From: Candidatus Dojkabacteria bacterium
GTDB lineage: Bacteria > Patescibacteriota > Dojkabacteria > GCA-002793355
DNA length: 64,000 nt
NCBI GenBank assembly: GCA_030583825.1
Contig: CP129477.1
Location: forward strand, 1,024,221 to 1,088,220
Reading direction: 5' to 3'
This document shows, piece by piece, positions 2,893-36,880 of the stretch; within the stretch, counting starts at the first letter, position 1, and every line of letters begins with the position of its first letter. Position numbers and translations under genes: made by a program. The notes beneath the pieces were generated by a model that saw only the letters and a program-made list of their open reading frames with translations, ran no database searches and was not told where the DNA came from.

Positions 2893-2905
2893 AGTAGCCT
2901 TATTT

Positions 2906-3133: not shown

Positions 3134-3237
3134 CGAGTGCCCAATCCCACGAATTAATTCTCCTACAAGGAACGCCCAGTAATTATGAGTATCACCTTCA
3201 TGTGGGAAATATGCCCACGGTAAGAGACCTTTATAAT

Positions 3238-3702
3238 TTATTTCGTATACCTGCTGTTCATGGTAATGAAGTGCTTCGGTATTTGTCCATACCTGAGCTC
3301 TGCATCTATGGCAAACTGTGAGTTGTACTCTGTATGAAATGAGAAGACTCCGACAGTTCTTTCAATTGGAGATAATCTCGGTTCTTTCTCATACGCATTT
3401 TCCACATCAATATCTCTTCCTGAAAAATATGAGAATTCAATATTTTTAAAAGCAGCACGTACTTCATCACACTTACATTCTGTTGCTAATTGACCGTTTT
3501 CTTTATATGTATAAAAGAGATCCACATCATTAGGTTCAAGCCCAGAAATAACATCTATTGCGCAACCTCCACGGCAAATAATGTCTACAATGTGCGGAAC
3601 TGCTCGATTGATCTTCTGTAAGTCGTTCGCAATAGCAGACACAATAGCTGAGTTTTGAGAAGAAACTAACCGTGTCGTTGCATTAATAATATAGTCGTTC
3701 AT
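3238..3702 (-). CDS. nucleotidyltransferase of the ANT(2'')-Ia / LnuA (lincosamide/aminoglycoside nucleotidyltransferase) type
   Basis: 154 aa. The block GGCAIDVISGLEPNDVDLFY matches the GGWGVDxLxG...DIDI nucleotidyltransferase signature of LnuA/ANT(2''). Its size also fits, since that family runs about 160-180 aa. Confidence 0.55.
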   Translation of the reverse strand: MNDYIINATTRLVSSQNSAIVSAIANDLQKINRAVPHIVDIICRGGCAIDVISGLEPNDVDLFYTYKENGQLATECKCDEVRAAFKNIEFSYFSGRDIDVENAYEKEPRLSPIERTVGVFSFHTEYNSQFAIDAELRYGQIPKHFITMNSRYTK

Positions 3703-7692: not shown

Positions 7693-9717
7693 TTATTCTT
7701 CGAACTGACTGTTGTAAAGCTTTGAATAAAATCCATCTTTTTGAAGTAATTTTTTGTGTGTTCCCTGCTCTACGATGTTTCCTTGGTTCATGACAAGAAT
7801 TACATCTGCTTCTTTAATCGTAGAAAGACGATGGGCAATAATAAAGCTTGTTTTGCCGTCCATAAGCTTTTTCATGGCCTTCTGAATCAATATTTCTGTA
7901 CGGGTATCAACAGAGCTAGTTGCTTCATCTAAAATAAGCATTGGCGAGTCCGCAAGCATTGCGCGGGTAATTGTGAGTAGTTGTTTTTCTCCTTGAGAAA
8001 TATTGTCAGCAGACTCATTGATTTCCGTGTCGTATCCTTGTGGAAGAGATTCTATGAAATGATCTACATGTGCCATTTCTGCTGCGTGCTTTATTTCCTG
8101 TAGTGTTGCGTCAGGGTTTGAGTATGCAATATTTTCCTTTATTGTTCCCTTAAATAGCCATGTATCCTGAAGAACCATTCCAAAGAGCTTGCGCACATTT
8201 GAACGTTTTAATGTTGAAATATCTACGCCATCAATTTTAATCGAGCCCGAGTTTACTTCGTAAAAGCGCATTAGTAAATTGACCATTGTTGTTTTTCCTG
8301 CACCTGTTGGGCCGACAATCGCTACCGTTTGGCCCGGCTTGATATTCGCGGTAAACCCTTTAATAATTAATTTCTCTGGCTCATATCCAAACGTAACATT
8401 TTCAAATGAAACTTCTCCTTTGATTTTTCTCGCGTCTAGTTCACCTGCTTTATCGGTGGACTCTTCTGCTTCTTCTATAAATTCAAAAACTCGTTCTGAA
8501 GATGCAACAAGCGATTGCAGAACATTTGCAATATTGGCGGTTTGAATAATCGGCTGGTTAAATTGCTGTAAATATTGAATAAATGCTTGAATATCACCAA
8601 TATTTATTCGACCTTCAATAGCTAATTTACCTCCAAGTACTGCAATACCGACATATCCGATATTTCCAATAAAGCTCATTACTGGGAACAATAAACCGGA
8701 AAGAAACTGTGATTTCCAACCGCTGTTATGTAACTCTTTGTTAATCTTTGTAAATTTCTCCAGAGAGCGAGCTTCCGCATTAAAAGCTTTCACCACAGTG
8801 TGACCTCCATACATTTCTTCTATGTGTCCATTCATGTCACCAAGAGTTTTTGATTGCATTGTGAAAAACTTCTGCGACTTTTTGATAATGACTCCGGTAA
8901 CAATTAAACTTGCCGGCAATACCAGAAGCGCGACAATCGTCATAAGCCAGTTGATTGAAAACATCATGATTAAAATTCCAATAAGCGTTGCAATTGAGGT
9001 AATTAACTGAGACATACTTTGGTTCAATGTCTGACTGATCGTATCAATATCATTTGTAATACGGCTTAAAATATCTCCATGGGTATTTGTGTCAAAATAT
9101 CGCAACGGAAGACGATTAATTTTTTGTGAAACATCTCTACGAAGCTTGAATGTTACATCTTGAGACACTCCGGACATTATCCAGCCCTGAATGTAGCTGA
9201 AAAATGCACTAAGTAAATAAAGACCAATGAGCCACAACGCAATTTGTCCAATGACATCAAATCTAAATTCCGGCTTTACAGTAAGGTCAAGAGATTTAAG
9301 CTTTTCCAAGCGATCTTCAGGGATTTGCTGTAGTTGTTCAGGAGGAATAAACTTTAGCATAACTTCTCCTTTTGTCCCTGGAGGAAGTTCCATTCCTTGA
9401 GGTAGTTGCTCGCGTGCTTGAGTGTAGATTGTAATGTTTATGTAATCTTCAACAATCTGATTTGTAATATTTCCAAGAATTTTAGGACTAACAATCGTAA
9501 AAACTGTGCTCGCAATTGCAAAAATAACAACGGCAATCATTTTTCCCCAGTATGGACGGAGGTAACCAATTAGCTTTCTCAATGTGCCCTTAAAATCTTT
9601 CGCTTTTGCTCCCATAACTATTCCGCCGCCCATCATTCCTCCAGGGCGTCCTCCCATTGGCATTATCGGACGCTGTTCTTTTTTCATCGTGCTCATACTA
9701 TTTATTACCTCCAACAA
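7693..9717 (-). CDS. ABC exporter, fused permease/ATPase subunit (heterodimeric multidrug/lipid exporter type)
   Basis: 674 aa. Six TM helices, then Walker A GPTGAGKTT, the ABC signature LSQGEKQLL and Walker B LILDEATSSVD. Confidence 0.85.
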   Translation of the reverse strand: MLEVINSMSTMKKEQRPIMPMGGRPGGMMGGGIVMGAKAKDFKGTLRKLIGYLRPYWGKMIAVVIFAIASTVFTIVSPKILGNITNQIVEDYINITIYTQAREQLPQGMELPPGTKGEVMLKFIPPEQLQQIPEDRLEKLKSLDLTVKPEFRFDVIGQIALWLIGLYLLSAFFSYIQGWIMSGVSQDVTFKLRRDVSQKINRLPLRYFDTNTHGDILSRITNDIDTISQTLNQSMSQLITSIATLIGILIMMFSINWLMTIVALLVLPASLIVTGVIIKKSQKFFTMQSKTLGDMNGHIEEMYGGHTVVKAFNAEARSLEKFTKINKELHNSGWKSQFLSGLLFPVMSFIGNIGYVGIAVLGGKLAIEGRINIGDIQAFIQYLQQFNQPIIQTANIANVLQSLVASSERVFEFIEEAEESTDKAGELDARKIKGEVSFENVTFGYEPEKLIIKGFTANIKPGQTVAIVGPTGAGKTTMVNLLMRFYEVNSGSIKIDGVDISTLKRSNVRKLFGMVLQDTWLFKGTIKENIAYSNPDATLQEIKHAAEMAHVDHFIESLPQGYDTEINESADNISQGEKQLLTITRAMLADSPMLILDEATSSVDTRTEILIQKAMKKLMDGKTSFIIAHRLSTIKEADVILVMNQGNIVEQGTHKKLLQKDGFYSKLYNSQFEE

Positions 9718-11464
9718 TAGCTAATTCTTTTTCACTTAATTGTGACTGCGCAATTTCCTGATAAACTTCCGACGTTTTCATAAGTTCCGCGTGAGTTCCC
9801 TGTCCAACGATTTGCCCTTCGTTAAGCACTATAATATTATCTGCATTCATAATTGTGCTTACTCTTTGAGCCACAATAATAACTGTTTTTCCTTTAGTTT
9901 TTTCGGAAAGTGCCTTGCGTAACGTTGCATCAGTTTTAACATCTAATGCAGAAAAACTGTCATCAAAAATGAATATATCGGGATCTTTGGCAATCGCTCG
10001 CGCAATGTTTACTCTCTGTTTTTGTCCACCCGATAGGTTTGTTCCGTCTTGTGCAACAGCTGTTTCGTATTGTGCTTCGAATCTTTCAATAAACTCTTTT
10101 GCTTGCGCAATATCTGCAGCTTGTTTCATCTTCTCTTCTTGAATTTCAGCTTCACCAAAAAGAATATTGCTTTGTATCGTGCCTGAAAAAAGTACTGCTT
10201 TTTGCGATACATATCCAATTTTTTCTCGGAGAGCGTTTTGAGAAACACTTTTTACATTCACACCGTTTACAAGCACTTCACCACTTGTGGCATCGAAAAA
10301 TCTTGGAATCAAGTTTACAATTGTTGATTTACCACTTCCGGTACTTCCAATTATTGCTGTCACTTGTCCTCGGTTGGCAGTAAAACTAATATCTTTTAGC
10401 ACCGGTGTTTCTGCATTGCCGTAAGAAAAATCTACATGTTTAAACTCCACTTCACCTTTTTTTGCCTCGATAAAGTCGGCGGGAACAAGGGGATCTGTAA
10501 TTTTTAGTTGTGTCTCCAGCACTTCTGATATTCGTTTTGCAGAGATAATTGCTCGAGGGATCATAATAAATACGAACGATAGCATTAAGAACGAAATAAT
10601 AACCTGCATTGCATACTGCATAAATGCAAGCATGCCTCCAATTTCCAGGTTTCCATCAGCAATATGATGTGCACCAACCCAAATAATGGTGATTGTTGTT
10701 AGGTTAAGGATTAAAAACATTATTGGCTGCATAAATACCATTGCTCTGTTTACAAAAAGATTTGTATTAGTCAGATCTGTATTTACCTGCTGGAATTTTT
10801 CTTCTTCTATTTTTTCTGTATTAAACGCGCGAATTACTCGTAATCCTGTTATATTTTCTCTTGCCGTGAGGTTTAGTTTGTCTGTAAGCTTTTGTAGTAG
10901 TTCAAACTTTGGAATCACAAGTGTAAAGAGAACTATAATAATGGTAATCAGCAAGGCCACCGATACCGCCATAATCCAGCTCATTGAAGGAGCAAGGTGA
11001 TATGCTTTAATAACTGCACCCACACCAGTTATCGGAGCCATAAGTACCATTCGAAAGATGAATATCAGTACCATTTGCACTTGTTGAATATCGTTTGTTG
11101 ATCGTGTGATAAGCGAAGAGATTGAAAAGTTGTTAAATTCAGCAAGAGAAAAACTTTCTACTTTTTCAAATACAGCTTTGCGAGCATCCCTTGCAAACGA
11201 AGTCGCAACCACAGCGGAAAAGAAACCTGCAAGAATTGTACAAACACCTCCAACCAATGCGACAAAAAGCATTTCTATCCCTGTATTGAGAATAAAACTC
11301 TCATTTTCTTTTACGATTCCTTCATTAATAATTCGTGCGAGATAATCTGGCAACTGTAGGTTTACGGTCACCTGCAAGTATGTCAAAACAACGATTGCAA
11401 TAATAAAGAGAATGTATGGCTTTAGATATTTGGAAAGTTTAATCATTCTTATTAAGTCCCTCAA
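9698..11464 (-). CDS. ABC exporter, fused permease/ATPase subunit (partner of 7693..9717)
   Basis: 588 aa. TM domain, then GSTGSGKST, LSGGQKQRV and IFIFDDSFSALD. It overlaps the downstream partner gene by 20 nt. Confidence 0.85.
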   Translation of the reverse strand: MRDLIRMIKLSKYLKPYILFIIAIVVLTYLQVTVNLQLPDYLARIINEGIVKENESFILNTGIEMLFVALVGGVCTILAGFFSAVVATSFARDARKAVFEKVESFSLAEFNNFSISSLITRSTNDIQQVQMVLIFIFRMVLMAPITGVGAVIKAYHLAPSMSWIMAVSVALLITIIIVLFTLVIPKFELLQKLTDKLNLTARENITGLRVIRAFNTEKIEEEKFQQVNTDLTNTNLFVNRAMVFMQPIMFLILNLTTITIIWVGAHHIADGNLEIGGMLAFMQYAMQVIISFLMLSFVFIMIPRAIISAKRISEVLETQLKITDPLVPADFIEAKKGEVEFKHVDFSYGNAETPVLKDISFTANRGQVTAIIGSTGSGKSTIVNLIPRFFDATSGEVLVNGVNVKSVSQNALREKIGYVSQKAVLFSGTIQSNILFGEAEIQEEKMKQAADIAQAKEFIERFEAQYETAVAQDGTNLSGGQKQRVNIARAIAKDPDIFIFDDSFSALDVKTDATLRKALSEKTKGKTVIIVAQRVSTIMNADNIIVLNEGQIVGQGTHAELMKTSEVYQEIAQSQLSEKELAIVGGNK

Positions 11465-11873
11465 GTATTTGATTTAAAATTCTAGTCAATTCTTTAACGT
11501 CATCTTCAGAAACAAATTTCAGCACAGAGTTAACTTTATCCATAAAGGTAAGACGCATTATACTCAGCTCCTTTTTGCCTTTATCACTGAGAGATAAATG
11601 AATAATTCTTCTATCGGAATCATTATTTTCTCTGACGATCCACCCATTACTTTGTAACCTCTCTATTAGCTGTGCAATTGCAGCAGAGGACATACAAAGA
11701 TCAGTAGCGAACTCACCAACGGTTACTTTTGGATTTTCATTGAGAAACCGTAGCGCATGAAATTGTAAAAATGTTGCTGCACGCTGTTCTTTGCTCATCT
11801 GATTCTTGGCAATAACATGCTTTCGCAACTTTAATATTGTTGCAATTAATTGTTCTGTTAATTCTTTTTTCAT
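11439..11873 (-). CDS. MarR-family transcriptional regulator
   Basis: 144 aa with a winged-HTH core typical of MarR (LTVGEFATDLCMSSAAIAQLIERLQSNGWIVRENNDSDRR). Its 3' end overlaps the ABC gene, consistent with one operon. Confidence 0.8.
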   Translation of the reverse strand: MKKELTEQLIATILKLRKHVIAKNQMSKEQRAATFLQFHALRFLNENPKVTVGEFATDLCMSSAAIAQLIERLQSNGWIVRENNDSDRRIIHLSLSDKGKKELSIMRLTFMDKVNSVLKFVSEDDVKELTRILNQILEGLNKND

Positions 11874-13186: not shown

Positions 13187-13213
13187 AACTTGTAAGAATA
13201 AATTTATGATAAA

Positions 13214-13223
13214 CCCATATGGG
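13214..13223. promoter_or_regulatory. perfect 10-bp palindrome CCCATATGGG in the divergent NUDIX / wHTH-Nudix intergenic region
   Basis: Read directly from the sequence. It is a candidate operator for the adjacent wHTH protein. Confidence 0.25.
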
Positions 13224-13303
13224 CTTTATTAAACTACTTTTACATTAAGCTATCCCCGATGTGACTGAAGAGGCCTTCGGTAAATAGTACGTTATAATTA
13301 TGA

Positions 13304-13987
13304 ATGCTACACAAGACTCAGTTGCAAATACTCGAATCTCTCTTATTTTTGCAAGAGGCAAGGTTTCAGGAACTAAATATAAAGCAGATGCCTACAGATC
13401 AATTTAATTTTCATATCAAACAACTACGAAAGCTGGGATATATTCAAGTTGAAAACCGCGCGTATTCACTAACTGATCTTGGAAAAGACTTTGCCGGTAG
13501 AATTGATACCAAGTCACACAGGTATACGATACAACCGAAAATTGGTGTTTGTTTATTTGTTTTTCAGAAAATAGGGAATGAAAAGCTTATCCTTTTAGGG
13601 AAACGGCTGAAAGATCAGTCAAAGGGCTTATGGGGGCCGTTTTCAGAGAAAGTTCACATATATGAGCCTATCGAGAACACAATTGTACGATGCCTAACTA
13701 CTGAAACGGGATTAACACCACTCTCGTGGGACTTTGCAGGAGTACACCGTTATATGAGTTCTAGCGTTGACGTTATTTTGCAATGCTTTCTTGTAACTCA
13801 TTATTCGGGGCAACTTCTAAGTGTAACTTCTGAGTCCGAAAACAGCTGGATTCCTCTTAGTAAAATTGGAGAAATGAACACATTTCTTGGGTTAACAGAA
13901 ATATTGGAAAACATAGAAACGTCAGAAAAATTCTTTTTTGAGGTTACATCTCTGGCTCTAGACCAAACGCCAGCGCAAGATCAATAG
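13304..13987 (+). CDS. winged-helix DNA-binding domain fused to a Nudix-fold domain with a degenerate Nudix box (putative ligand-sensing regulator)
   Basis: 227 aa. The N-terminus, QILESLLF...FNFHIKQLRKLGYIQ, looks like a wHTH. The C-terminal Nudix-like stretch GPFSEKVHIYEPIENTIVRCLTTETGL lacks the REx2EE glutamates. It is a clear paralog of 31124..31813. Confidence 0.5.
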   Translation: MLHKTQLQILESLLFLQEARFQELNIKQMPTDQFNFHIKQLRKLGYIQVENRAYSLTDLGKDFAGRIDTKSHRYTIQPKIGVCLFVFQKIGNEKLILLGKRLKDQSKGLWGPFSEKVHIYEPIENTIVRCLTTETGLTPLSWDFAGVHRYMSSSVDVILQCFLVTHYSGQLLSVTSESENSWIPLSKIGEMNTFLGLTEILENIETSEKFFFEVTSLALDQTPAQDQ

Positions 13988-14405
13988 GAAGCTTATAATC
14001 TGCAATCCAGACTCGCCTGTCAAACTTTTCAATTCTAATGCCTTTAGGAAGCTTTTCTGGCTCTGCTAATTCCATAACTGTGACATACTTCTTGTCCTGC
14101 ACTTTCTCAAACATTTCTCGTGCATGAGCTTCGTCTCTTAATCCTACGCGAGGCTGAATTGATAGAAGAAGATCAAGAAGTTCCAGTGTATCTTCTATTT
14201 CATAAGATTTTGCAGAGATTATTTTCACTCTACCCACAACTGGGCCACTAGATTCTTTTATATACATGATATCTCCAGGAGTTACTTTATTGTACGGAGC
14301 AATTCTCTTGTAACTAAGCTTGATATCAACTGTTTTTGTGCCGTCAAAAATCATGTTTATATAATCACGGCTTTTCTTTTTGTTGTATATGGTAAGGTGA
14401 TTCAT
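13944..14405 (-). CDS. ASCH (PUA-like) domain protein
   Basis: 153 aa. IFDGTKTVDIKL...PGDIMYIKE resembles the GxKxxExR / beta-barrel ASCH signature. It overlaps the upstream gene convergently by 44 nt. Confidence 0.45.
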   Translation of the reverse strand: MNHLTIYNKKKSRDYINMIFDGTKTVDIKLSYKRIAPYNKVTPGDIMYIKESSGPVVGRVKIISAKSYEIEDTLELLDLLLSIQPRVGLRDEAHAREMFEKVQDKKYVTVMELAEPEKLPKGIRIEKFDRRVWIADYKLPIDLALAFGLEPEM

Positions 14406-14438
14406 ACTCTCAATCTATTTTACAATACGTCAGTAGAT

Positions 14439-15398
14439 CTATAAACCCAAAGAGAGTCTCTGTTTATTTTTCATTGTTCCCATACCGATTATCCAGCCTT
14501 CTTCTGTAATGCAATCTATTTGCTCTTTATGGGAAAGCCCTTCAGGAACTCCTAACAATGATAAAAGTCCATCCTCCATATCGTTTTTGTGAAGCCAATT
14601 AACTGTCGCACGAACCTGGGCTTGATCTTTTATTATTGAACTGTCTAGTGTGCCTGAAAAAATGCCCGGCCAGATTTCTATATGTAAAATAAGTGGTTGA
14701 TTGCTCGTAACAGGAGCCACGAAGCCTGTTTCAAATGGCCAGATTTGAGAATACTTTTCTAAGAATGGATGGAATCGAAGTTTATGTATAGCAGGAATTC
14801 CTACTAAGGTCTGCCCACCTACACTTGCACTGCCAATAAGTTTCCATACCGGCTGAGCTTTTGACTCTCTCATTTCTGTCCAGCGAAATTTTCGCAAAAT
14901 ATGCCCAGTTCTTGTGTGGTATGGGTATCTAGGACTTTTTGGACTAAGATATTCTAACTTAGTATTAACAGGGCATCCCCATAGCGGGCCATAATTGGTT
15001 GAACCACTCAAGAGGGAGTTTAAATATGCAGCAACTTCAAAACGATTATTGGAATTATCAGGATTATCAATTATTAATTTAGAAAGTTTGTTCCATAGTA
15101 ATCTCCATTTTGGAAACTTACCACGAAGATCAAGTGCATCAATAAACCCTGCTGGAAATCCGAAATCTAAATCATATCCAACTATAATCCTTTCTTTATT
15201 AGTAACAGCTGAACTTAAAAGTGGTAATAAATATTCTATACATTCAAATCTTGTACGAAAATAGCTCTCTTTTTGAATGCCATTTTTATCTTTTTCACCT
15301 ACCCAGATTGCGTCATGCGATGGTTTTGCAGCACTTGGAGCACTTCGCGCGCTCCAATCAACAGCAATATATTTATCAAACAACATTTCTACAGTCAC
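14439..15398 (-). CDS. hypothetical protein (319 aa)
   Basis: No family recognised. The N-terminus, KYIAVDWSARSAP, is faintly RNase-H-fold-like. Confidence 0.3.
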   Translation of the reverse strand: MTVEMLFDKYIAVDWSARSAPSAAKPSHDAIWVGEKDKNGIQKESYFRTRFECIEYLLPLLSSAVTNKERIIVGYDLDFGFPAGFIDALDLRGKFPKWRLLWNKLSKLIIDNPDNSNNRFEVAAYLNSLLSGSTNYGPLWGCPVNTKLEYLSPKSPRYPYHTRTGHILRKFRWTEMRESKAQPVWKLIGSASVGGQTLVGIPAIHKLRFHPFLEKYSQIWPFETGFVAPVTSNQPLILHIEIWPGIFSGTLDSSIIKDQAQVRATVNWLHKNDMEDGLLSLLGVPEGLSHKEQIDCITEEGWIIGMGTMKNKQRLSLGL

Positions 15399-15493
15399 TA
15401 ATAGTTATTAAAGAATGATAATTGAAAAGGTAAGAAAATGATACTGAAATTGATTTCACGAAGAGAATTGTTTACTTTTGAGGAAAATATCTG

Positions 15494-29559: not shown

Positions 29560-30306
29560 TTAGATAACAAATTCAACTTCAATAGGAAAATGGTCTGAAC
29601 CAAAACTGTTATCTCCAATTGAGGATTGTTTTACTTTAAGGACGTTTGCTCCAACAATGTAGTCTAACTTAGTCCTCATTGTTAGAAATTTTTGTGTCGC
29701 GCCATATGGCACACAGTCCCTATATCTATATTGTTTCATAATATCTTCCACTGCTTCTTTCTCGTTTATAAAAAGATCCTTAAAACCATAACCGTAGATT
29801 AATGCAATAAAAAGATTTAAAGGTAGTGCTCCAAACGTATTGAAGTCACCGGCAATAATAGCCTTGTTATATTGTTCAAGTTTTGAAAAAATAGTTGCCA
29901 ACTCTAAAGATCTTTGAGTGGGCGGATATCCATTGGTTAAATGAACATTACATACAGCTATAGTCTTTCAATTGATAACGCATTCGGCAAAGTGAAAAGT
30001 CCTTGCTTCATCCCAATCGAGGAAGTGCTGAATTGCCGATTTCTTTTGCCCATTTAAAGGAAATTCATTACTATCTACGACTTTAATTGTATTCTTTAAT
30101 AATGTCACTAAGTAATATGTTTTTGAATACTGAATAAAATCATGAGATACAAGCGTATAGTACTCAGGCAGCTTCCGACGAATAAATGTTAACAATGGTA
30201 AAGATACTTCTTGCAAACAATATATATCAGCCTTATAGGCTTCGAAAAATTTATCAATGTTTCCTTCTTGATTGTTACTCGCAATATTCCAAGAAACTAT
30301 TTTCAT
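29560..30306 (-). pseudogene. endonuclease/exonuclease/phosphatase (EEP) family gene interrupted by a single in-frame TGA at 29968-29970
   Basis: ORFs 29968..30306 (MKIVSWNIASNN...CLQEV, the EEP N-terminus) and 29560..29901 (AGDFN...KLDYIV...SDHFPIEV, the EEP C-terminus) are in the same frame. They are separated only by TGA. The codons between them (KTIAVCNVHLTNGYPP) continue the EEP fold. Confidence 0.6.
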
Positions 30307-31028
30307 TCCAAAAGCTCATAAACTATATCTTTTATTTCCTCATTATTTTGCAATAACTCTTCAACCGTTGCTCCCTTTTCTTCTAATAAATACTGAACCA
30401 TCAGGTGATATCTCAGGTAAAGCCCCGATTCTTTAGGGTTAAATTCTCTTTCATTACTTCTTAATCTCTCTCTGGCATCTTCAAAGTTCAAACTTCCTTT
30501 CGCAACATAGTCAGCATATCCTTCCTGAACCCATACCGGCAAGTTGAAATATCGAAGCCTTCCCACTTCATTAACTGTCATCGCATGAGTAACTTCATGT
30601 GCAATGTAATAAGAGAGTGACCTATCTGGGTCATTGAGCAATACACCCGACGCCCTGATTATCTTATTTTGTGCGACATCCGAAGGACGAATAAAGGTAT
30701 TCCCATTAAAATAGATATACGCGATTCCCCCGACATTCTTATTAGTATTAGCAAAATATGTAAAACAAAATACAGTATCACAAAGAAAGACTTTATACAC
30801 CAATTGGGGATCATACAACGGAGAGTTCTTTATTTTGCTTAATGCAATATTTGCAACAGAAATCACGTTTTCCTGTTTCTCTCCATTTGAATATAGTTTC
30901 AAGTTTTCAACCTGAACAATGTCTTTAAAGAAAATCCCCGGAAAGAACAGCGTTAAAAGATAAAATCCGCCAAGAGTAAAGAGAGAAATTAGAAAAGTAA
31001 GTAATGCCTGCTTCATATTCCACTTCAT
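30303..31028 (-). CDS. membrane-anchored HExxH zinc metallopeptidase (hypothetical)
   Basis: The start is probably MKWNMKQALLTFLISLF (signal/TM) at 31028 rather than the track start at 31181. HEVTHAM is present, and EGYADYV may be the third zinc ligand. Its start overlaps the pseudogene's start region by 4 nt. Confidence 0.45.
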   Translation of the reverse strand: MKWNMKQALLTFLISLFTLGGFYLLTLFFPGIFFKDIVQVENLKLYSNGEKQENVISVANIALSKIKNSPLYDPQLVYKVFLCDTVFCFTYFANTNKNVGGIAYIYFNGNTFIRPSDVAQNKIIRASGVLLNDPDRSLSYYIAHEVTHAMTVNEVGRLRYFNLPVWVQEGYADYVAKGSLNFEDARERLRSNEREFNPKESGLYLRYHLMVQYLLEEKGATVEELLQNNEEIKDIVYELLE

Positions 31029-31070
31029 GATAGAGAGTATATCGCTTTGTTGAAAAGATTTCCTGTTGCA

Positions 31071-31090
31071 TAGTGAAACTAATTTCACTA
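31071..31090. promoter_or_regulatory. inverted repeat TAGTGAAA-n4-TTTCACTA upstream of the wHTH-Nudix paralog
   Basis: Read from the sequence. It lies in the divergent intergenic region between the peptidase and 31124..31813. Confidence 0.25.
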
Positions 31091-31123
31091 GATTCTCACC
31101 CCTTACCAGATTATACTTATTAC

Positions 31124-31813
31124 ATGACACATCTTCACCAAATACAAATGAAAATTTTGCGAGAGCTTTTGTTCCACCCAAAATCGAGATTCACCGATTT
31201 GAATATCTCTGGATTGTCGTCAGATCATTTTAGCTATCATATGCGAGAGCTCAAAAAGCTAGGACTGGTAGACAAAATCGAAGATACATACATTCTGAGC
31301 CACGATGGCAAAGAATTTGCAAATAGGATGGACACAGATAAAAATATTATGGAAAAGCAGCCAAAAGTTTCGGTTGTTATTTGTCCAGAACTTGAAATTA
31401 ACGGAGTAAAACATTACGCGGTACAAACACGCTTGAAAGAGCCTTATTATGGATATAATGGTTTTATAACAGGAAAAGTACGCTTTGGAGAAAAGATTGT
31501 CGAAGCAGCCGCTCGAGAACTTCTTGAAGAAATGGGTATAACCGCAACATTTACCCCAATGTACGTTCTCCATGAAATGGTGTACAACATGTCTGGTAAC
31601 ATGCTGGAAGATAAGTTTTTCCACGCAGTACTTGCCACAAATGTTAAAGGAAAACTCGTAACCGAAATTGAGGGTGGAAAAAATAGATGGGTCACCAAAA
31701 AAGAATTTGAAGAAATGGCCCCCAAGTATCACAACGAAGACGATATCTTTGCATGGTTCGATGCCAGAAAATATGAATTCATAGAGGAAACGTATTTTAT
31801 AGAATCGTTTTAA
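31124..31813 (+). CDS. winged-helix DNA-binding domain fused to a NUDIX hydrolase domain with an intact Nudix box (paralog of 13304..13987)
   Basis: The track ORF starts at 31073, but Met-18 at 31124 aligns with the paralog's start. The N-terminus, MKILRELLF...FSYHMRELKKLGLV, looks like a wHTH. The Nudix box GKVRFGEKIVEAAARELLEEMGI is intact. Confidence 0.55.
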   Translation: MTHLHQIQMKILRELLFHPKSRFTDLNISGLSSDHFSYHMRELKKLGLVDKIEDTYILSHDGKEFANRMDTDKNIMEKQPKVSVVICPELEINGVKHYAVQTRLKEPYYGYNGFITGKVRFGEKIVEAAARELLEEMGITATFTPMYVLHEMVYNMSGNMLEDKFFHAVLATNVKGKLVTEIEGGKNRWVTKKEFEEMAPKYHNEDDIFAWFDARKYEFIEETYFIESF

Positions 31814-31914
31814 AATTAGTTACACCGTACCTTAAGGACAAGAAATCGAGATTCTTATATGTCGCAAGTGTCGCACTGGACAAACTAAGAGTAAAGTACT
31901 ATAATACCAGCAGA

Positions 31915-33054
31915 ATGATTCCTCAAGAAACAAGAACTGGGGATACTAATGGGGGACAGAGCGACATACTCAGTCAAAACATGAGATTTTCTCTCCCAGA
32001 TGTCGCCTCAAGCGTCGAGATCGTATCTCAAGTAGACGCACGTGAAGCCGAACCAGATTCAAGTGGCAGATTTATCATCTATAAAACAAACGAAGTCTCT
32101 GCTTATTCTGCTCCAACCTCCCATATAGGAACATTAACAGAAGCCTATGAAAATGCAGTAAATATTGCTTATAGGGATAAATCAAAAGTAATACCTCCAG
32201 AAAGAACACTTCACATTGCGCGGGATGAATTGAGTGCCTGGTATATTTTTACTTACGAAGAAGAAGGCTTTGATCCAAACAGCAAGGAGTTTCAAAATGG
32301 AGGATTAATTGTCAGAGATGCGCAGGAGAGACGTTCAATAATCCTTGGAGGACTGATCGTCAAAAAACCAATAGACACTCAAACATACATTGAGGAATTT
32401 GTAACAACAAGCACAGAGTCACTTTCTTTACTTGAAGGTCAAATTCAAGAAAAATATGGAACATTAATTCCCGCTGAAATACTTGCAGAATTGTCAGTTG
32501 CAAATATTCCATTTATTGAGCTCAGCAGAGCAATTAATATATCTGGTGATAGATCAATTTTAAAAGATATACCTCCAGATATATTAATGCATATTCTCAA
32601 AGGACGGTCACTTCTTCGAGATATGAAACAATCTTTGTTTTGTGACGCAATAGATACTTCAAAAAGAACAATTCATGCACATGATACGTCTTTAGGTAAT
32701 CCATTAAGAGCAGGAATTGTTGGCGCAGTAGGCTTTCGCCAGGGGGGCCCAGATGCCTTAATGAACTTATTTACACGCCAGACACATATTATTACAGATG
32801 CTGTTCAAGAAGTAGAGTTCGAAGAAGATATCGCTTTTTTGAAAGGTTTCTATCCAGATATGCGCAAAAAAATACAACCAGAAGATCTAATTCGGCTACA
32901 ATATAGTACTCAAGGTCGGTATAGAAATCTTTTTACTGATGGCTTTTATAATACGTATAACGGGCCACACGGTGCGGGTACAAATCCATTGGTTCTTGCC
33001 GGAGCATTCTATCTACAACCAGAATGTGTTCCTGAATATACTCCCGCTGCATAA
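31915..33054 (+). CDS. hypothetical protein (379 aa)
   Basis: No family recognised. The N-terminal 60 residues are low-complexity, so the real start may be the internal Met (MRFSLPD). Confidence 0.3.
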   Translation: MIPQETRTGDTNGGQSDILSQNMRFSLPDVASSVEIVSQVDAREAEPDSSGRFIIYKTNEVSAYSAPTSHIGTLTEAYENAVNIAYRDKSKVIPPERTLHIARDELSAWYIFTYEEEGFDPNSKEFQNGGLIVRDAQERRSIILGGLIVKKPIDTQTYIEEFVTTSTESLSLLEGQIQEKYGTLIPAEILAELSVANIPFIELSRAINISGDRSILKDIPPDILMHILKGRSLLRDMKQSLFCDAIDTSKRTIHAHDTSLGNPLRAGIVGAVGFRQGGPDALMNLFTRQTHIITDAVQEVEFEEDIAFLKGFYPDMRKKIQPEDLIRLQYSTQGRYRNLFTDGFYNTYNGPHGAGTNPLVLAGAFYLQPECVPEYTPAA

Positions 33055-33253: not shown

Positions 33254-36200
33254 ATGCCCGATGTAATCCCCCGCGAGTCAACTCAGCAAAATAAAGGTCT
33301 CTCTATTGACCGCGTATTTACCACTCCAGATCATAATAGACTTGAAGAGGTCATTTATGAAAGACGTATGTCAAAAATTACTGATGCTGCAGGCAAAGCA
33401 GTGTTTGAAAAAACAGACGTTGAAGTTCCTATCAGTTGGTCACAAGTCGCAACAGATGTTCTAGCACAAAAGTATTTTAGAAAAAAAGGCGTTCCTAAAA
33501 TTTTCACAGAAATGGACGATTTTTCTGTAGATGATAGCTACGAAAACGTTGTCGGTGACGGAAACCACGATGATGTTGAAACAACCGGAGAAAATTCTAT
33601 AAAGCAGGTTGCGCACCGTTTAGCCGGAACATGGGCATGGTGGGGTCATAAATACGGGTATTTTAAGACAAAAGCAGATGCAGAAGCCTTCTACGACGAA
33701 GTTAAATATACACTTATTAGTCAAATTGCAGCACCAAACTCTCCACAATGGTTTAATACTGGCCTACATTGGGCTTATGGCATTACAGGGCCATCTCAAG
33801 GACATTGGTATGTTGACCCTGATACAAAAGAACTTACCCCTTCACAAGACGCATATTCTCATCCTCAGCCTCACGCGTGTTTCATTCAGGAAGTAAATGA
33901 TGATCTTGTTAACGAAGGTGGAATTTTCGACTTAATTACAAAAGAGGCTCGCATTTTCAAGTATGGGTCAGGCACAGGCACAAACTTCTCTGCCCTTCGC
34001 GAAGAAGGCGCGCCACTTTCAGGTGGAGGAACATCTTCCGGCGTAATGAGCTTTTTGTCGATATTCGACCGAGCGGCTGCCTCAGTAAAATCCGGAGGAA
34101 CTACAAGACGTGCGGCAAAAATGGTCATTTTGAACATTGATCATCCTGATATTGAGAAGTTCATTAACTGGAAAGTAAAAGAAGAGCAAAAAGTTGTTGC
34201 ATTGGTCACAGGAAGTAAAATTGCAGCAAAACACCTGAAACAGATTATGCAAAGTGCAGAATCTCATGGCATTGATCCAAAGAAGAACAGTGAGCTGAAA
34301 AAGCTAATTAAAGCAGCAAAAGAAGTAGAAGTTCCACTCAACTATATAAAGAGAGTTTTAATGCTTGTTGAAAACGGAGTTCCTTCGTCACAGTTTGATT
34401 TCGCAAGCTTTGATACAGACTTTCGCTCAGAAGCATACACAACCGTAGACGGACAAAACTCAAATAATACTGTGCGCGTTACAAATGAATATATGGAAGC
34501 TATTGAAAAAGATGGCGACTGGGAACTGACAAGTAGAATTAACGGCAAAGTTGTCAAAACAATTAAAGCTCGAGATCTCTGGAATCAGATTGGTAATGCA
34601 GCATGGCAATCAGCAGACCCAGGCTTACAATTTGATACCACAATTAATGATTGGCATACTTCCCCTCAAGATGGAAGAATTAATGGCTCAAATCCTTGTT
34701 CTGAGTATATGTTCCTCGATGAAACTGCCTGTAACCTTGCTTCCATTAACCTCGATAAGTTCTACGATCCAGAGACACAAACATTTGATGTCGAAACATA
34801 TCGTCATGTCATTCGCTTGTGGACAATTATCCTTGAAGTTTCAGTATTAATGGCACAGCTTCCTTCAGCAAAAATGGCTGAACGAACCTACAAATATCGA
34901 ACATTGGGGCTTGGGTATGCAAACCTTGGAACAGTTATCATGAAATCCGGCCTTCCTTATGACAGCGACGAAGCACGTGGAATTGCCGGCTCACTGACCG
35001 CAGTTCTTACTGGAGAATCATATGCAACATCTGCAGAGATGGCACAAGCCCTTGGAACATTTGAAAGATTCGATGCAAATCGAGATGATATGCTCAGAGT
35101 TATACGCAATCACAGACTCGCAGCATACAATGCAAACAGTGAAGAATATGAGAATCTCTCTATTCCACCAATGGGTATAGATGCGGAAGTTACTCCTGAG
35201 TATCTCGTCAAAGCAGCACAGAAAAGCTGGGATAAAGCATTGGATTTCGGTGAAAAATATGGATATAGAAATGCACAAACAACTGTTATTGCTCCTACAG
35301 GCACAATTGGCCTCGTAATGGACTGTGATACAACAGGATTTGAACCAGATTTTGCACTTGTGAAATTCAAAAAGCTTGTTGGAGGAGGATATTTCAAGAT
35401 TGTAAACCAATCATTGGAGCATGCACTTGCCGTTCTTGGCTATGACAGCCTTCAAATCCAGGATATTATTACTTATGTTCTGGGAGCAGGAACACTTGAT
35501 ACTGCACCACATATTAATCGGCAAGCATTGCTACAAAAAGGCTTTACAGATGAAAAAGTTGACCTTATAAATTCTCAACTAAAGACTGCATTTTCTATTA
35601 CTTTTAGCTTTAACCGCTATGTATTAGGGGATGATTTTATAAAAGGACTTTTTCCTGATAAAGAAATTGACCTCGATGATCCTTCATTTAATTTGCTCAA
35701 AGAGCTTGGATTTTCTGACGACGAAATCGGTGAAGCAAACGAGTATATCTGTGGTTCTATGACAATTGAGGGAGCACCACATTTGAAAGAGGAGCACTAT
35801 GCAGTATTTGACTGCGCAACAAAGTGTGGAGCAAAAGGTACGCGATACATTGCTCCAATGGGCCATGTGAAAATGCTTGCCGCGGGCCAGCCATTTATCT
35901 CTGGTTCGATTAGTAAAACAGTGAACCTTCCAGAAGAGGCTACTCTTGAAGATATTGAACATACGTATATGCAAAGCTGGCACATGGGACTCAAGTGTAT
36001 TGCCCTTTACCGTGATGGTTCAAAGCTTTCACAGCCTTTGTCATCATCTTCTTCGGCAGACGATGTGTACTCGAAACTTTTTACCTTTGAGGACGAAACA
36101 GTAGTTACTCCGCAAGTTGTCTCTCAAGCTGTCCAAATAGAGCAAGCACAAAAATTAATGGCACTTCGCCGCAAGCTTCCAAATGAGCGACTTGGCATTA

Positions 36201-36880
36201 CTCATAAGTTTGAAGTTGGAGGACATGAGGGTTACATAACAGTTGGACTATTTGAAGACGGTACTCCTGGCGAAATCTTCCTCCGAATGAACAAAGAAGG
36301 AAGTACTTTAAGTGGAATCATGGACGCATGGGCAATCTCTTTGTCATTAAATTTGCAGTATGGTGTTCCATTGCAAGTATTAATCAATAAGTATGCTCAC
36401 TTGAGGTTTGAGCCGTCAGGCTTAACAAATAATAAGAGCATTCCTATGGCAAAATCTATTGTAGATTACCTCGCACGATGGCTTGCCTTAAAATTCCTGG
36501 ACACTGCATCTGCAAAGAAATATCACACAGAGGAGCTTGTAGAAAGATCCCACCGAAATGGTGATTTGAAAGCTTCAGATATCGCAATGCTGTATGGTAT
36601 GAAGCATAATGAACATCAAGCAGCTTCCACAACTAGTATTGTGCAACAAAATACCCCTGTGACTGAAAAGAAAGTTGTTGAGGAAGTTGTCCAAAAACAA
36701 CAAGAAGGGATATCATCAGAAGCTACAAACTTAGAGCAGTTGCAAAAAGATCAAATTAAACAGGCAATGGCGCAAAATAATGAAGATGCTCCAATTTGCC
36801 ACCAATGTGGTGCTGTAATGGTTCGAAACGGCTCATGCTATAAATGCCTTGAGTGCGGAACAACAACAGGATGTTCATAA
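33254..36880 (+). CDS. nrdJ: class II (adenosylcobalamin-dependent) ribonucleotide reductase, long form
   Basis: 1208 aa. The N-terminus (GLSIDRVFTT...EVIYERR) is NrdJ-type. The active-site block NPCSEYMF is present. The C-terminal Cys cluster CHQCGAVMVRNGSCYKCLECG fits the zinc-ribbon/redox tail. No ATP-cone and no intein motifs were seen. Confidence 0.85.
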   Translation: MPDVIPRESTQQNKGLSIDRVFTTPDHNRLEEVIYERRMSKITDAAGKAVFEKTDVEVPISWSQVATDVLAQKYFRKKGVPKIFTEMDDFSVDDSYENVVGDGNHDDVETTGENSIKQVAHRLAGTWAWWGHKYGYFKTKADAEAFYDEVKYTLISQIAAPNSPQWFNTGLHWAYGITGPSQGHWYVDPDTKELTPSQDAYSHPQPHACFIQEVNDDLVNEGGIFDLITKEARIFKYGSGTGTNFSALREEGAPLSGGGTSSGVMSFLSIFDRAAASVKSGGTTRRAAKMVILNIDHPDIEKFINWKVKEEQKVVALVTGSKIAAKHLKQIMQSAESHGIDPKKNSELKKLIKAAKEVEVPLNYIKRVLMLVENGVPSSQFDFASFDTDFRSEAYTTVDGQNSNNTVRVTNEYMEAIEKDGDWELTSRINGKVVKTIKARDLWNQIGNAAWQSADPGLQFDTTINDWHTSPQDGRINGSNPCSEYMFLDETACNLASINLDKFYDPETQTFDVETYRHVIRLWTIILEVSVLMAQLPSAKMAERTYKYRTLGLGYANLGTVIMKSGLPYDSDEARGIAGSLTAVLTGESYATSAEMAQALGTFERFDANRDDMLRVIRNHRLAAYNANSEEYENLSIPPMGIDAEVTPEYLVKAAQKSWDKALDFGEKYGYRNAQTTVIAPTGTIGLVMDCDTTGFEPDFALVKFKKLVGGGYFKIVNQSLEHALAVLGYDSLQIQDIITYVLGAGTLDTAPHINRQALLQKGFTDEKVDLINSQLKTAFSITFSFNRYVLGDDFIKGLFPDKEIDLDDPSFNLLKELGFSDDEIGEANEYICGSMTIEGAPHLKEEHYAVFDCATKCGAKGTRYIAPMGHVKMLAAGQPFISGSISKTVNLPEEATLEDIEHTYMQSWHMGLKCIALYRDGSKLSQPLSSSSSADDVYSKLFTFEDETVVTPQVVSQAVQIEQAQKLMALRRKLPNERLGITHKFEVGGHEGYITVGLFEDGTPGEIFLRMNKEGSTLSGIMDAWAISLSLNLQYGVPLQVLINKYAHLRFEPSGLTNNKSIPMAKSIVDYLARWLALKFLDTASAKKYHTEELVERSHRNGDLKASDIAMLYGMKHNEHQAASTTSIVQQNTPVTEKKVVEEVVQKQQEGISSEATNLEQLQKDQIKQAMAQNNEDAPICHQCGAVMVRNGSCYKCLECGTTTGCS

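Follow-up and report, generated by a model that had tools for sequence, protein, structure and literature searches.

An undescribed winged-helix–Nudix protein family of CPR bacteria and the promoter palindrome predicted to be its own operator

Introduction

What does a protein do that carries a winged helix-turn-helix (wHTH) domain in front of a Nudix domain, and what reads the palindrome lying just upstream of its gene? The question was raised by P1 and its paralog P2, both encoded in the window (i.e., the whole 64-kb stretch of DNA analyzed). CPR bacteria account for a large share of bacterial diversity, and they have tiny genomes and very few transcription factors and depend on scavenged nucleotides; to our knowledge, almost none of their gene regulation has been characterized.

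The wHTH–Nudix family is undescribed and is found across ultra-small CPR bacteria. Its proteins were annotated merely as "NUDIX domain-containing protein" or "MutT", with the label "ADP-ribose pyrophosphatase YjhB" on P1 homologs in some sources, and a literature search for N-terminal-HTH Nudix regulators, or for Nudix regulators in Patescibacteria/Saccharibacteria, gave nothing relevant besides NrtR. A preliminary description of the window had taken P1 for a DNA-binding regulator plus a possibly active hydrolase; this was still the best reading after the present analysis, because the wHTH and Nudix domains, the intact canonical box, and the conserved operator-like repeat all held. Every element placed by that description was found in the sequence, exactly or with an offset of at most 1 base (Table 1).

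Table 1. Positions of the features discussed, counted from the first base of the window
Feature	Position	Strand	Basis or remark
Small stand-alone Nudix hydrolase, 144 aa	12752..13186	-	Pfam NUDIX E=1.2e-14; divergent from P2
Predicted P2 operator, GACTGAAG-aggc-CTTCGGTA	13263..13282	.	Read from sequence; same arms before the L081 relative
TATAAT of P2	13293..13298	+	10 nt downstream of P2 operator, 5 nt before ATG
P2, "RC" subfamily paralog	13304..13987	+	BLASTP to P1 E=3e-28; RC clustering
Degenerate box EKVHIYEPIENTIVRCLTTETGL of P2	13646..13714	+	Same place as P1 box; G->E, RE->RC, EE->TE
Possible target operon of second site: 319-aa protein and 153-aa ASCH-like protein	13944..15398	-	ORFs
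Candidate second P1-type site TCGTGAAATCAATTTCAGTA, 21 nt, TATCAT	15439..15464	-	Upstream of 14439..15398(-)
Putative membrane-anchored HExxH (gluzincin-like) protein	30303..31028	-	Divergent neighbor of P1; ATG 31028
Predicted P1 operator, TAGTGAAA-ctaa-TTTCACTA	31071..31090	.	Exact inverted repeat (8+4+8), conserved upstream of orthologs
-35-like hexamer TAGATT	31089..31094	+	Predicted; overlaps palindrome right arm by 2 nt
-10-like hexamer TATACT	31112..31117	+	Predicted; 21 nt past palindrome, 6 nt before ATG
P1, wHTH–Nudix protein, 229 aa	31124..31813 (ATG to stop codon end)	+	ORF, translation, Pfam NUDIX
N-terminal wHTH domain of P1, residues 1-69	31124..31330	+	AF2 topology; PDB profile search; Sso10a_fam
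Predicted recognition helix, residues 33-45, with conserved D-H-F-S-Y-H	31220..31258	+	AF2 model
Nudix domain of P1, residues ~79-229	31358..31810	+	Pfam NUDIX over residues 100-212; Foldseek
Canonical Nudix box GKVRFGEKIVEAAARELLEEMGI of P1	31472..31540	+	Exact fit to GX5EX7REUXEEXGU

Results

Two wHTH–Nudix paralogs

P1 and P2 aligned significantly by BLASTP (E=3e-28, 31% identity across 195 aa) and were true paralogs, as had been proposed; a tblastn search of the 64 kb revealed no third paralog in the window. The ATG at 31124 was taken as the P1 start instead of the upstream GTG at 31073, because the ortholog N-termini read M-x-x-L-H-x-I-Q. A total of 432 P1 homologs displayed 46-98% identity, and nearly all of them had a length of ~229 aa. 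The AF2 model of P1 (mean pLDDT 93.4) displayed a wHTH topology followed by a Nudix (α/β/α) fold. The same two-domain layout could be assigned to both paralogs, in agreement with the preliminary description: Pfam NUDIX (PF00293) was matched above its cut-off of 21.1 by P1 (39.8 bits, E=5.6e-10) and by P2 (25.8 bits), and the first ~70 residues of each gave sub-threshold single-sequence Pfam wHTH matches (DUF7347 and HTH_45).

The N-terminus of P1 was modeled as H6-17, H23-26, H33-45, E49-52, E55-58, and H60-66, so that a three-helix bundle and a β-hairpin wing were found together with wHTH sequence similarity. A profile of 33 N-terminal domains matched exclusively wHTH DNA-binding proteins in the PDB, namely HxlR-type 3df8 (best, E=0.004), AspA, Sso10a, YdzF, ArsR, and QsrR, and the NCBIfam model Sso10a_fam was matched by 33/59 family members (best E=9.5e-7).

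For the Nudix domain of P1, Foldseek against the PDB returned MTH1/NUDT1 chains (E~1e-9, TM(target) 0.70-0.77) and also the NrtR Nudix domain 3gz8 (E=2.7e-8). A six-frame search of the window gave the box GKVRFGEKIVEAAARELLEEMGI as its sole match to GX5EX7REUXEEXGU, and RExxEE was conserved in 120/120 close P1 homologs and 79/79 genome loci (199 checked); the box at the same place in P2 was degenerate, and the intact-versus-degenerate distinction drawn earlier between the paralogs stood. Catalysis is probably retained in P1: since all catalytic-box residues are kept, nucleoside-diphosphate-X binding and hydrolysis would be expected. NCBIfam matches to MutT, NudE, NudB, and NudG were weak and all far under the equivalog cut-offs, e.g., 23 bits against cut-offs of 98-148 for the MutT models and 23 bits against 156 for NudG.

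Distribution and gene neighborhood

P1 orthologs were found in Dojkabacteria, Saccharibacteria, Shapirobacteria, Woesebacteria, Daviesbacteria, Liptonbacteria, Sungiibacteria, and Gracilibacteria. A P1 ortholog was encoded by no fewer than 223 GTDB species genomes, and an exhaustive HMM search yielded 370 clusters (50% identity) at E<=1e-30; the family had been presumed small and lineage specific, and this spread across many CPR/Patescibacteria phyla contradicted that view.

The divergent neighbor of P1 carried a hydrophobic N-terminal segment and the motifs HEVTH...EGYADY, and its sole family matches were Peptidase_MA_2 and DUF1570 around HEVTH, both sub-threshold (E~0.015); a membrane peptidase is a plausible identity. 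No HExxH homolog adjoined any P1 ortholog (0/80 loci), and across the same 80 loci neither a conserved gene neighborhood of P1 nor any NAD gene among the neighbors was found. A P1–HExxH functional unit was rejected because the neighborhood of P1 was not conserved, and the pairing suggested in the preliminary description had to be given up also because the palindrome was in register with the P1 promoter and not with that of the peptidase.

A conserved palindrome fused to the predicted P1 promoter

The P1 palindrome sat within the 95-nt gap between the HExxH gene and P1. Taken alone, such a palindrome (8+4+8) would arise in ~100 nt with a probability that is only moderately low.

The same palindromic motif preceded 72/81 P1 orthologs from several CPR phyla, and the P1 site in the window had a PWM score of 26-30 bits versus a maximum of 18 bits in 20 shuffled windows; because of this conservation and of a score so far over the shuffles, the inverted repeat was taken to be beyond chance, and what had been reported as an exact repeat turned out to be a real conserved, operator-like cis-element. 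Arm positions 8/13 covaried symmetrically (G-C in 35 sites and A-T in 30).

The palindrome stood in a fixed relation to promoter-like hexamers. At the -35-like position the family consensus was T-(A/T)-G-A-n-n (T in 72/72 sites, G in 59, and A in 53), and the motif had an asymmetric "ACTAGA" tail because this hexamer overlaps the right arm. A TAnnnT hexamer lay 20-22 nt downstream of the palindrome at 59/68 loci, at any distance from the ATG (the 68 loci were those, out of the 72 sites examined, with a TAnnnT hexamer of >=4/6), and the palindrome-to-ATG distance varied from 32 to 191 nt across the ortholog loci. With just 6 nt between its -10-like hexamer and its ATG, the P1 transcript in the window is probably leaderless, and the palindrome center would be at about -43.5 relative to the inferred transcription start.

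Additional copies displayed altered sites. The second copy at locus L074 had a GGGAAG-n4-CTTCCC site and an altered helix (SDHAKFH) with the 21-nt register retained, and the paralog at locus L198 had its own symmetric variants TCAAATCAATTTGA and TATAGAAATCAATTTCTATA. Residue 38 of the predicted recognition helix went with the type of site in 71/71 listed loci (Y for TTTCAC, F for CTT(T/C)AC); this Y/F rule tracks phylogeny and is thus confounded, with the P2 relative P0122 as an exception, and residue 38 was kept as a lead to a possible determinant of operator specificity.

The site thus predicted for a winged-helix transcription factor was specific to its gene, conserved, in fixed register, and accompanied by paralog variants. 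A palindrome that is conserved, promoter fused, and symmetrically varied between paralogs is, as far as sequence can speak, the signature of an autoregulatory operator. Nearly every family member stood behind a palindrome in its own promoter, so self-regulated synthesis is most likely, i.e., a family member would switch its own synthesis on and off.

P2, the RC subfamily, and a co-traveling small Nudix gene

P2 grouped with about 25 representative clusters sharing EK...RC..xE, and the resulting RC subfamily had the signature EKxxxGE...RC..xETGL. Cys130, replacing the first catalytic Glu, was invariant in 24 RC-type sequences; R103, K105, K118, E123, R131, E136, and D163, among others, were invariant in both subfamilies, and P2 contained neither E132 nor E135. 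The subfamily was visible only via the exhaustive HMM search, since a word-index search gave 2 P2 relatives and an RC profile gave 11.

A P2 relative at locus L081 (55% identical) was preceded by GACTGAAG-acat-CTTCGGTC, 10 nt, and TATAAT; the spacer and flanks differed from those of P2, and the arms GACTGAAG-n4-CTTCGGT were common to both. No second copy of the P2 operator was found in the window.

The small Nudix ATG was ~86 nt from the P2 operator in the window. Orthologs of this small gene (48-58% identity) adjoined RC-type genes in two different arrangements, (i) divergent at L081 and (ii) on the same strand with a 4-nt overlap at L198; the linkage was present in 3/4 lineages examined, and the RC-type locus L197 lacked the small Nudix gene. 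P2 had been described as one degenerate copy of a pair, which was correct for its box but not for the protein as a whole: the subfamily to which P2 belonged was conserved and had an invariant Cys, and P2 carried an operator variant of its own and was linked to a small Nudix gene.

Search for further sites

The PWM scan of the 64-kb window detected P1's own site plus one marginal site and nothing more, and only ~3 other sites of >=15 bits turned up in 587 kb of sequence flanking the orthologs. An exact-pattern scan of metagenome contigs with AGTKAAATNNATTTCACTAG returned 114 stretches; among the 80 that were read, there were 18 scored as own-gene sites plus another, L128 at a contig edge, that was recognized as one on reading, and the remaining ones were nearly all chance matches inside ORFs of unrelated organisms (GC 23% to 68%). 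No regulon past the gene itself was found in the window, the 587 kb of flanks, or the metagenome contigs; a single-target regulator is unusual.

The marginal site, TCGTGAAATCAATTTCAGTA, had two mismatches to the P1 palindrome and a PWM score that shuffled windows also reach (14-16 bits); it was intergenic and stood 21 nt from a -10-like hexamer, as is usual in the family. In its possible target operon, the 319-aa protein (14439..15398) had no Pfam or PDB match, and the 153-aa protein had a sub-threshold ASCH match (E=0.019).

Discussion

Proposed mechanism

We favor, as reasonably probable, a dimer that represses its own gene and binds DNA according to the nucleotide occupying its Nudix domain, with P1 also hydrolyzing that nucleotide and P2 only sensing it. 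The DNA binding by P1, sign of regulation, leaderless start, and ligand control that we infer would combine as follows. A P1 dimer would bind the 20-bp palindrome (31071..31090) via its N-terminal winged helices, the two half-site cores being about one helical turn apart; with the palindrome fused to the -35 of P1's own, probably leaderless, promoter, bound P1 would most likely hinder RNA polymerase and exert negative autoregulation. The substrate would be a nucleoside-diphosphate-X, by fold nearest to the (d)NTP-type substrates of MutT/MTH1 enzymes; its occupancy would lower the affinity of P1 for DNA, so that the enzyme is made upon substrate build-up, and its hydrolysis would reset the switch. 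P2 would be the sensor-only version, with catalytic Glu residues replaced (the first by Cys), other invariant Nudix-domain residues kept, and an operator of its own covering its promoter; the separately encoded, co-traveling small Nudix gene would provide the hydrolase activity. That P1 itself, and not another factor, binds the palindrome is suggested by co-occurrence and covariation, and paralog-specific symmetric site changes are difficult to account for if the paralogs do not each recognize a site of their own.

Other readings of the locus

The same promoter geometry could be read with the opposite sign, i.e., P1 might be a class II-type autoactivator that contacts RNA polymerase from about -43.5 and activates with ligand either bound or absent, which we regard as unlikely. 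An operator center near -43.5 is at the classical class II activator position, and activators need helical phase with the polymerase, which would suit the strict 20- to 22-nt register to the -10 across phyla; besides, the -35-like hexamer is weak in many loci (TAGATT matches TTGACA at 3/6, and TTTTTT is present in one Saccharimonadia group). However, the overlap of the motif with the -35 hexamer is enough to impose this register, and good hexamers at many loci (TAGACA, TTGACG plus TATAAT-like) suggest promoters working unaided. In the P2 clade, moreover, the operator is shifted by 11 bp toward the -10, which leaves 10 nt between them, and covers the -35 hexamer and spacer, as a repressor site would; and a housekeeping hydrolase under positive autoregulation would be bistable, which seems less apt. 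It is improbable that the wHTH domain serves only to tether a Nudix enzyme to nucleic acid, as a promoter-bound or RNA-end pyrophosphohydrolase or a chromatin-type protein, with the palindrome being another factor's site or a promoter element. RNA 5' ends are substrates of some Nudix enzymes (RppH and NudC), the leaderless start inferred at the A of the P1 ATG would be a +1A start of the type that receives NAD or Np4A caps, the L198 paralog gives a weak Nudt16-like match, and the N-terminal domain is as like Sso10a/AspA chromatin or partition proteins as classical regulators; but the palindrome is specific to P1-type genes, near absent elsewhere, and changes symmetrically with each paralog, and a general promoter element would precede many genes, not just one or two sites in 64 kb.

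Membership of P1 in the NrtR regulators is very improbable, even if the concept of joining Nudix and wHTH is the same, 3gz8 is among the structural matches, and some homologs bear the YjhB label: it was rejected on domain order (wHTH first, then Nudix), the best fold matches are MTH1-type and not ADP-ribose pyrophosphatases, and P1 keeps an intact box that is lost in most NrtR proteins. Operators before NAD, pentose, or related genes, or before any other gene, were found neither among the neighbors at the 80 loci nor in the 587 kb of flanks. The inverted repeat might alternatively act as an RNA/DNA hairpin (upstream-gene terminator, 5'-UTR structure, or riboswitch-like element) and not as a protein site, which is likewise very improbable. 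An 8-bp stem with a 4-nt loop can form and some arm positions covary; this reading was nevertheless rejected, with a weak fold (-6.7 kcal/mol, z=-1.48, and 16/200 shuffles folding equally well), an empty Rfam search of the region, no T-run, and non-complementary arm positions 3/18 in 32/72 sites and 1/20 in 33/72. Particular bases (T4, A6, A7, T14, T15, and A17) are invariant beyond what pairing would ask for, and the palindrome lies upstream of the conserved -10-like hexamer and therefore outside the transcript.

Wider implications

Building on the autorepressor reading, we tentatively consider, as possible but short of probable, an ancient, self-contained sensor-enzyme-operator module shared by CPR bacteria, in which a Nudix hydrolase would sit on the promoter of its own gene until its substrate releases it, the destruction of that substrate then resetting the system; repeated splitting would have turned this module into a Cys-substituted pseudo-enzyme sensor plus a separate small Nudix enzyme, with paralogs insulated by operator variants. 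In a bolder version, the promoter-bound Nudix would have as its targets the 5' caps, or the non-canonical nucleotides used for initiation, of the leaderless +1A transcript.

A regulator family conserved over many CPR phyla, with a defined predicted 20-bp operator, a promoter geometry, and helix/operator variants, offers a testable entry point. If the Nudix domain is both sensor and enzyme, the protein would act as a minimal homeostat that keeps a contaminant of, or a signal in, the nucleotide pool in check; if this is true, the P1/P2 pair would show how the sensor of such a homeostat, as a pseudo-enzyme, becomes separated from its enzyme, and the P1 family would be a second, independently evolved Nudix/winged-helix fusion beside NrtR.

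Comparison with known systems

HxlR/ArsR/PadR-like regulators and the archaeal Sso10a and AspA were the closest N-terminal sequence matches of P1 and shared its helix-helix-helix-wing topology, but they contain no Nudix domain and dimerize by their own helices, and the matches were marginal (PDB E 0.004-0.1). MutT/MTH1 (NUDT1) enzymes were the best structural matches of the P1 C-terminal domain and shared the canonical box, with weak NCBIfam MutT and NudG matches; unlike P1, they are single-domain proteins without a DNA-binding domain, their identity to P1 was just 15-20%, and no sharing of substrate-defining residues could be confirmed.

NadR, BirA, and PutA are bifunctional enzyme-repressors. 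They resemble P1 in that one polypeptide is a metabolic enzyme plus a ligand-responsive DNA-binding regulator, as proposed for P1, and the HTH of NadR (described in PMC2330246) is likewise N-terminal; their catalytic folds are unrelated, and their targets are biosynthetic or transport operons, whereas that of P1 is so far only its own gene.

NrtR carries an N-terminal Nudix domain and a distinct C-terminal winged-helix domain (PMC2330246), and its Nudix domain is the effector domain, ADP-ribose releasing NrtR from DNA (Rodionov et al. 2008, PMC2330246); this is a precedent for the ligand control proposed for P1. P1 and NrtR share (i) a fusion of a Nudix fold with a winged helix, with structurally similar Nudix domains (3gz8); (ii) the design of a dimeric regulator with lineage-varying palindromic operators and a Nudix effector pocket, the dimer and pocket being proposed for P1; and (iii) a catalytic signature kept in some members and lost in others. 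They differ in that (i) the wHTH of P1 is N-terminal and HxlR/ArsR/Sso10a-like, unlike the C-terminal domain of NrtR; (ii) the main P1 subfamily has a fully canonical box and a fold nearest to MTH1/MutT; and (iii) the P1 family occurs in CPR bacteria with its own gene as the only detected target. The P1-type fusion probably arose independently of NrtR.

Two wHTH–Nudix paralogs and their family

P1 and P2 (13304..13987, + strand; window G+C content 39%) shared the architecture of a winged helix followed by a NUDIX domain. The two proteins aligned with E=3e-28 (31% identity across 195 residues), and tblastn found no third copy of this type in the window. In P1, the NUDIX domain (residues 100–212) scored above the Pfam cut-off and winged-helix matches in residues 1–70 were sub-threshold; its Nudix box was the sole match to GX5EX7REUXEEXGU in six frames of the window. 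Paralogy of the two proteins, the canonical Nudix box of P1 and the 8-n4-8 inverted repeat upstream of P1, all reported in the preliminary description, were confirmed.

The P1 ORF could be extended upstream to a GTG at 31073 (246 aa by the ORF tool), and the database protein P0001 (98% identical to P1, 247 aa) likewise had a predicted start upstream of ATG 31124. These upstream starts would put the conserved palindrome and promoter inside the coding region and thus probably represent start-codon misannotation; the N-termini of orthologs (M-x-x-L-H-x-I-Q...) support ATG 31124.

The AlphaFold2 model of P1, built from an alignment of 59 family sequences (mean pLDDT 93.4), displayed helix 6–17, helix 23–26, helix 33–45, β-hairpin 49–58 and helix 60–66, followed by the Nudix fold. 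A profile of 33 N-terminal domains, compared with all PDB sequences, matched winged-helix DNA-binding proteins only: HxlR-type factor 3df8 (E=0.004), AspA, Sso10a, YdzF, ArsR, and QsrR. NCBIfam Sso10a_fam was matched by 33 of the 59 family members (best E=9.5e-7). Both results identify the N-terminal domain as a winged helix.

A word-indexed search yielded 432 P1 homologs, the best 120 of which were 46–98% identical to P1 and nearly throughout ~229 aa long; a motif-seeded GTDB scan (one genome per species) found a P1 relative encoded in at least 223 species genomes; and a profile search run exhaustively over 1.84 billion representatives gave 370 clusters (50% identity) at E≤1e-30. The closest homologs bearing an organism name were from Candidatus Dojkabacteria, by which the window is judged to be of CPR/Patescibacteria origin. 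The 80 retrieved loci carried the labels Dojka-, Sacchari-, Shapiro-, Woese-, Davies-, Lipton-, Sungii-, and Gracilibacteria, and a family spread over these eight CPR groups is not the small lineage-specific one initially supposed. Source names were 'NUDIX domain-containing protein', 'MutT', and 'YjhB'; a literature search for an N-terminal-HTH Nudix regulator, or any Nudix regulator in Patescibacteria, yielded the NrtR family only.

Features of the two paralogs and their surroundings
Feature	Position	Strand	Remarks
P1 ORF	31124..31813	+	229 aa, ATG at 31124
P1 Nudix box GKVRFGEKIVEAAARELLEEMGI	31472..31540	+	exact match to GX5EX7REUXEEXGU
P1 palindrome TAGTGAAA-ctaa-TTTCACTA	31071..31090		exact inverted repeat, predicted operator
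P1 -35-like hexamer TAGATT	31089..31094	+	predicted from sequence
P1 -10-like hexamer TATACT	31112..31117	+	predicted likewise; ATG six bases later
P2 box EKVHIYEPIENTIVRCLTTETGL	13646..13714	+	position equivalent to P1 Nudix box
P2 predicted operator GACTGAAG-aggc-CTTCGGTA	13263..13282		symmetric variant upstream of P2
Small stand-alone Nudix, 144 aa	12752..13186	-	Pfam E=1.2e-14; divergent neighbour of P2
Candidate second P1-type site TCGTGAAATCAATTTCAGTA	15439..15464	-	intergenic; one mismatch per half-site

Palindrome and predicted promoter of the P1 gene

The P1 palindrome lay within the 95-nt gap to the divergent gene 30303..31028 (- strand), which encoded a putative membrane-anchored HExxH peptidase. 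Across 81 loci (the 80 retrieved plus the window), a clear version of the motif was found upstream of the gene in 72, with the consensus tTAGTGAAATCaATTTCACTAGAt in Dojkabacteria-type loci and typically (A/T)A(C/G)TAAAGTCGACTTTACTAGA in other phyla; motif-less loci mostly began at contig edges or had uncertain starts. The window site scored 26–30 bits with the PWM, whereas the best score among 20 shuffled windows was 18 bits. Gene neighbourhoods of P1 orthologs varied, none being conserved, and only ~3 additional sites of ≥15 bits occurred in 587 kb of ortholog flanks, so the motif belongs to the wHTH–Nudix gene itself. No homolog of the HExxH gene adjoined any of the 80 orthologs, and its proposed role as functional partner was abandoned.

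Of the 72 sites examined, 68 had a TAnnnT hexamer matching at 4/6 or better; in 59 of these it was spaced 20–22 nt downstream of the palindrome, while the palindrome-to-ATG distance ranged from 32 to 191 nt; the palindrome thus appears fixed relative to the promoter and not to the start codon. Its last two bases plus the next four made up a hexamer T(A/T)GAnn (T in 72/72 sites, G in 59, A in 53), predicted to be the -35 position given the 17-bp spacer, and this overlap accounts for the asymmetric, always gene-proximal 'ACTAGA' tail of the motif. Because the ATG follows TATACT so closely, the P1 mRNA is probably leaderless; the predicted operator would be centred near -43.5.

Six arm positions were invariant in the 72 sites (T4, A6, A7 and their partners), and positions 8/13 covaried (G-C in 35, A-T in 30). 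Half-site cores were ~9–10 bp apart, a spacing that would suit a dimer on one DNA face. Recognition-helix residue 38 was Tyr with TTTCAC arms and Phe with CTT(T/C)AC arms in 71/71 listed loci; this split tracks phylogeny and has an exception in the P2 relative P0122, and is therefore taken only as a lead.

Symmetric variants specific to individual paralogs are more telling evidence for recognition of each protein's own palindrome: (i) at P2, TATAAT lay 10 nt downstream of the palindrome and 5 nt before the ATG, and at locus L081, encoding a P2 relative (55% identical), GACTGAAG-acat-CTTCGGTC was again followed by 10 nt and TATAAT, with spacer and flanks differing between the two; (ii) at locus L198, TCAAATCAATTTGA preceded an operon of the P2-like RC type, and TATAGAAATCAATTTCTATA preceded a canonical paralog 1 kb away; and (iii) at locus L074, GGGAAG-cgga-CTTCCC preceded a second canonical paralog with the altered helix SDHAKFH, in the usual 21-nt register to TAGGAT.

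No regulon beyond the own gene was found in the window, the 587 kb of flanks or a metagenome pattern scan, whose matches were mostly chance ones in unrelated organisms. The site at 15439..15464 was followed by a -10-like TATCAT at the 21-nt spacing usual in the family and lay upstream of 13944..15398 (- strand), encoding a 319-aa protein (no match in Pfam and PDB) and an ASCH-like 153-aa protein; its PWM score (14–16 bits) fell inside the shuffled-sequence range, and it may be a second target, as a statistically marginal candidate. The gene of the 153-aa protein converged on P2.

Catalysis and the P2 subfamily

RExxEE was kept in 120/120 close homologs and 79/79 genome loci, which argues that selection maintains hydrolysis in the P1 subfamily. 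The Nudix fold was closest to (d)NTP-type MTH1 enzymes; MutT, NudG, NudE, and NudB models scored the family at ~23–25 bits versus cut-offs of 98–245. Among 136 full-length representatives, 78 kept RExxEE and ~25 formed the P2 clade, with the common motif E/R/Q/T-K...R-C...x-E-x-G. The Cys replacing the first catalytic Glu (Cys130 in P2) was invariant in an alignment of 24 diverse P2-clade proteins, a pattern that speaks for a selected residue, perhaps with a role in metal or redox chemistry, and not for decay. Residues invariant in both subfamilies included R103, K105, K118, E123, R131, E136, and D163, which fits an RC subfamily that still binds its ligand but no longer hydrolyses it. The earlier interpretation of the pair as regulators, one predicted to be catalytic and one non-catalytic, stands in this respect, and fails as to family size and the HExxH partner.

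Orthologs of the small Nudix (48–58% identical) adjoined RC-type genes in two other lineages, divergently at L081 and co-directionally, overlapping by 4 nt, at L198, where the RC protein was only 30% identical to P2; at a further RC locus (L197) the small Nudix was missing and a dCTP-deaminase-like gene flanked instead.

Neighbouring genes and sites

A second palindrome, AAACCCATATGGGCTT, was located at 13211..13226 between P2 and the small Nudix gene, nearer the latter, and was absent from the corresponding L081 region. L198 (JGI Ga0484864_000003, 1373..4777) contained four Nudix genes in a 3.5-kb stretch: a pair of small stand-alone genes, an RC-type wHTH–Nudix, and a canonical wHTH–Nudix preceded by an 88-aa ORF of no recognised family, with an own palindrome variant before each regulator operon. 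A MarR-family gene (11439..11873, - strand) overlapped the start of an ABC-transporter-like pair (9698..11464 and 7693..9717); together (7693..11873) they resemble a typical efflux operon under MarR control, some 1 kb away from P2 and the small Nudix gene.

Next to the HExxH gene, 29968..30306 and 29560..29901 (both - strand) carried the N-terminal (Pfam profile positions 1–112 of 225) and C-terminal (143–225) halves of one endonuclease/exonuclease/phosphatase domain; the gene at 29560..30306 is split or frameshifted. A 4-nt overlap between its first part and the end of the HExxH gene suggests that they form a single operon. Directly 3' of P1, a 379-aa ORF (31915..33054, + strand; no match in Pfam and NCBIfam) with its own strong promoter-like TGGACA-17-TATAAT (31877..31905) preceded a class II-like ribonucleotide reductase (33254..36880).

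Proposed mechanism and comparison with NrtR

We favour, with some reserve, a dimeric autoregulator with a Nudix effector pocket: a P1 dimer would bind the palindrome that overlaps the predicted -35 element of the P1 gene, the Nudix pocket would serve as an NrtR-like effector site, and P1 would also hydrolyse the effector, so that induction ends itself; P2 would be a sensor-only form coupled to the separate small Nudix enzyme. Sequence-specific autoregulation by P1 is the likely part of this model, and ligand control is about an even call. Repression is somewhat the more probable mode, because the -35 and -10 hexamers of many loci are competent and the P2-clade operator lies one helical turn closer, over the -35 hexamer and spacer; class II-type autoactivation by P1 is unlikely.

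That the protein is a nucleic-acid-tethered Nudix and not a gene regulator seems very unlikely. A hairpin role for the palindrome, in RNA or DNA, is very unlikely: it would form only a weak stem (-6.7 kcal/mol, z=-1.48), Rfam has no match there, two arm positions are non-complementary in ~45% of sites, and the palindrome lies upstream of the -10-like hexamer.

As a probable autoregulator family conserved across CPR phyla with a well-defined predicted operator/promoter module, the P1 family would offer a concrete handle on CPR gene regulation. It would resemble NrtR in using a Nudix domain as effector pocket, but the NrtR family has the reverse domain order (PMC2330246), which makes membership of that family highly improbable; the P1 family is a reversed-order, probably independently evolved counterpart of NrtR.
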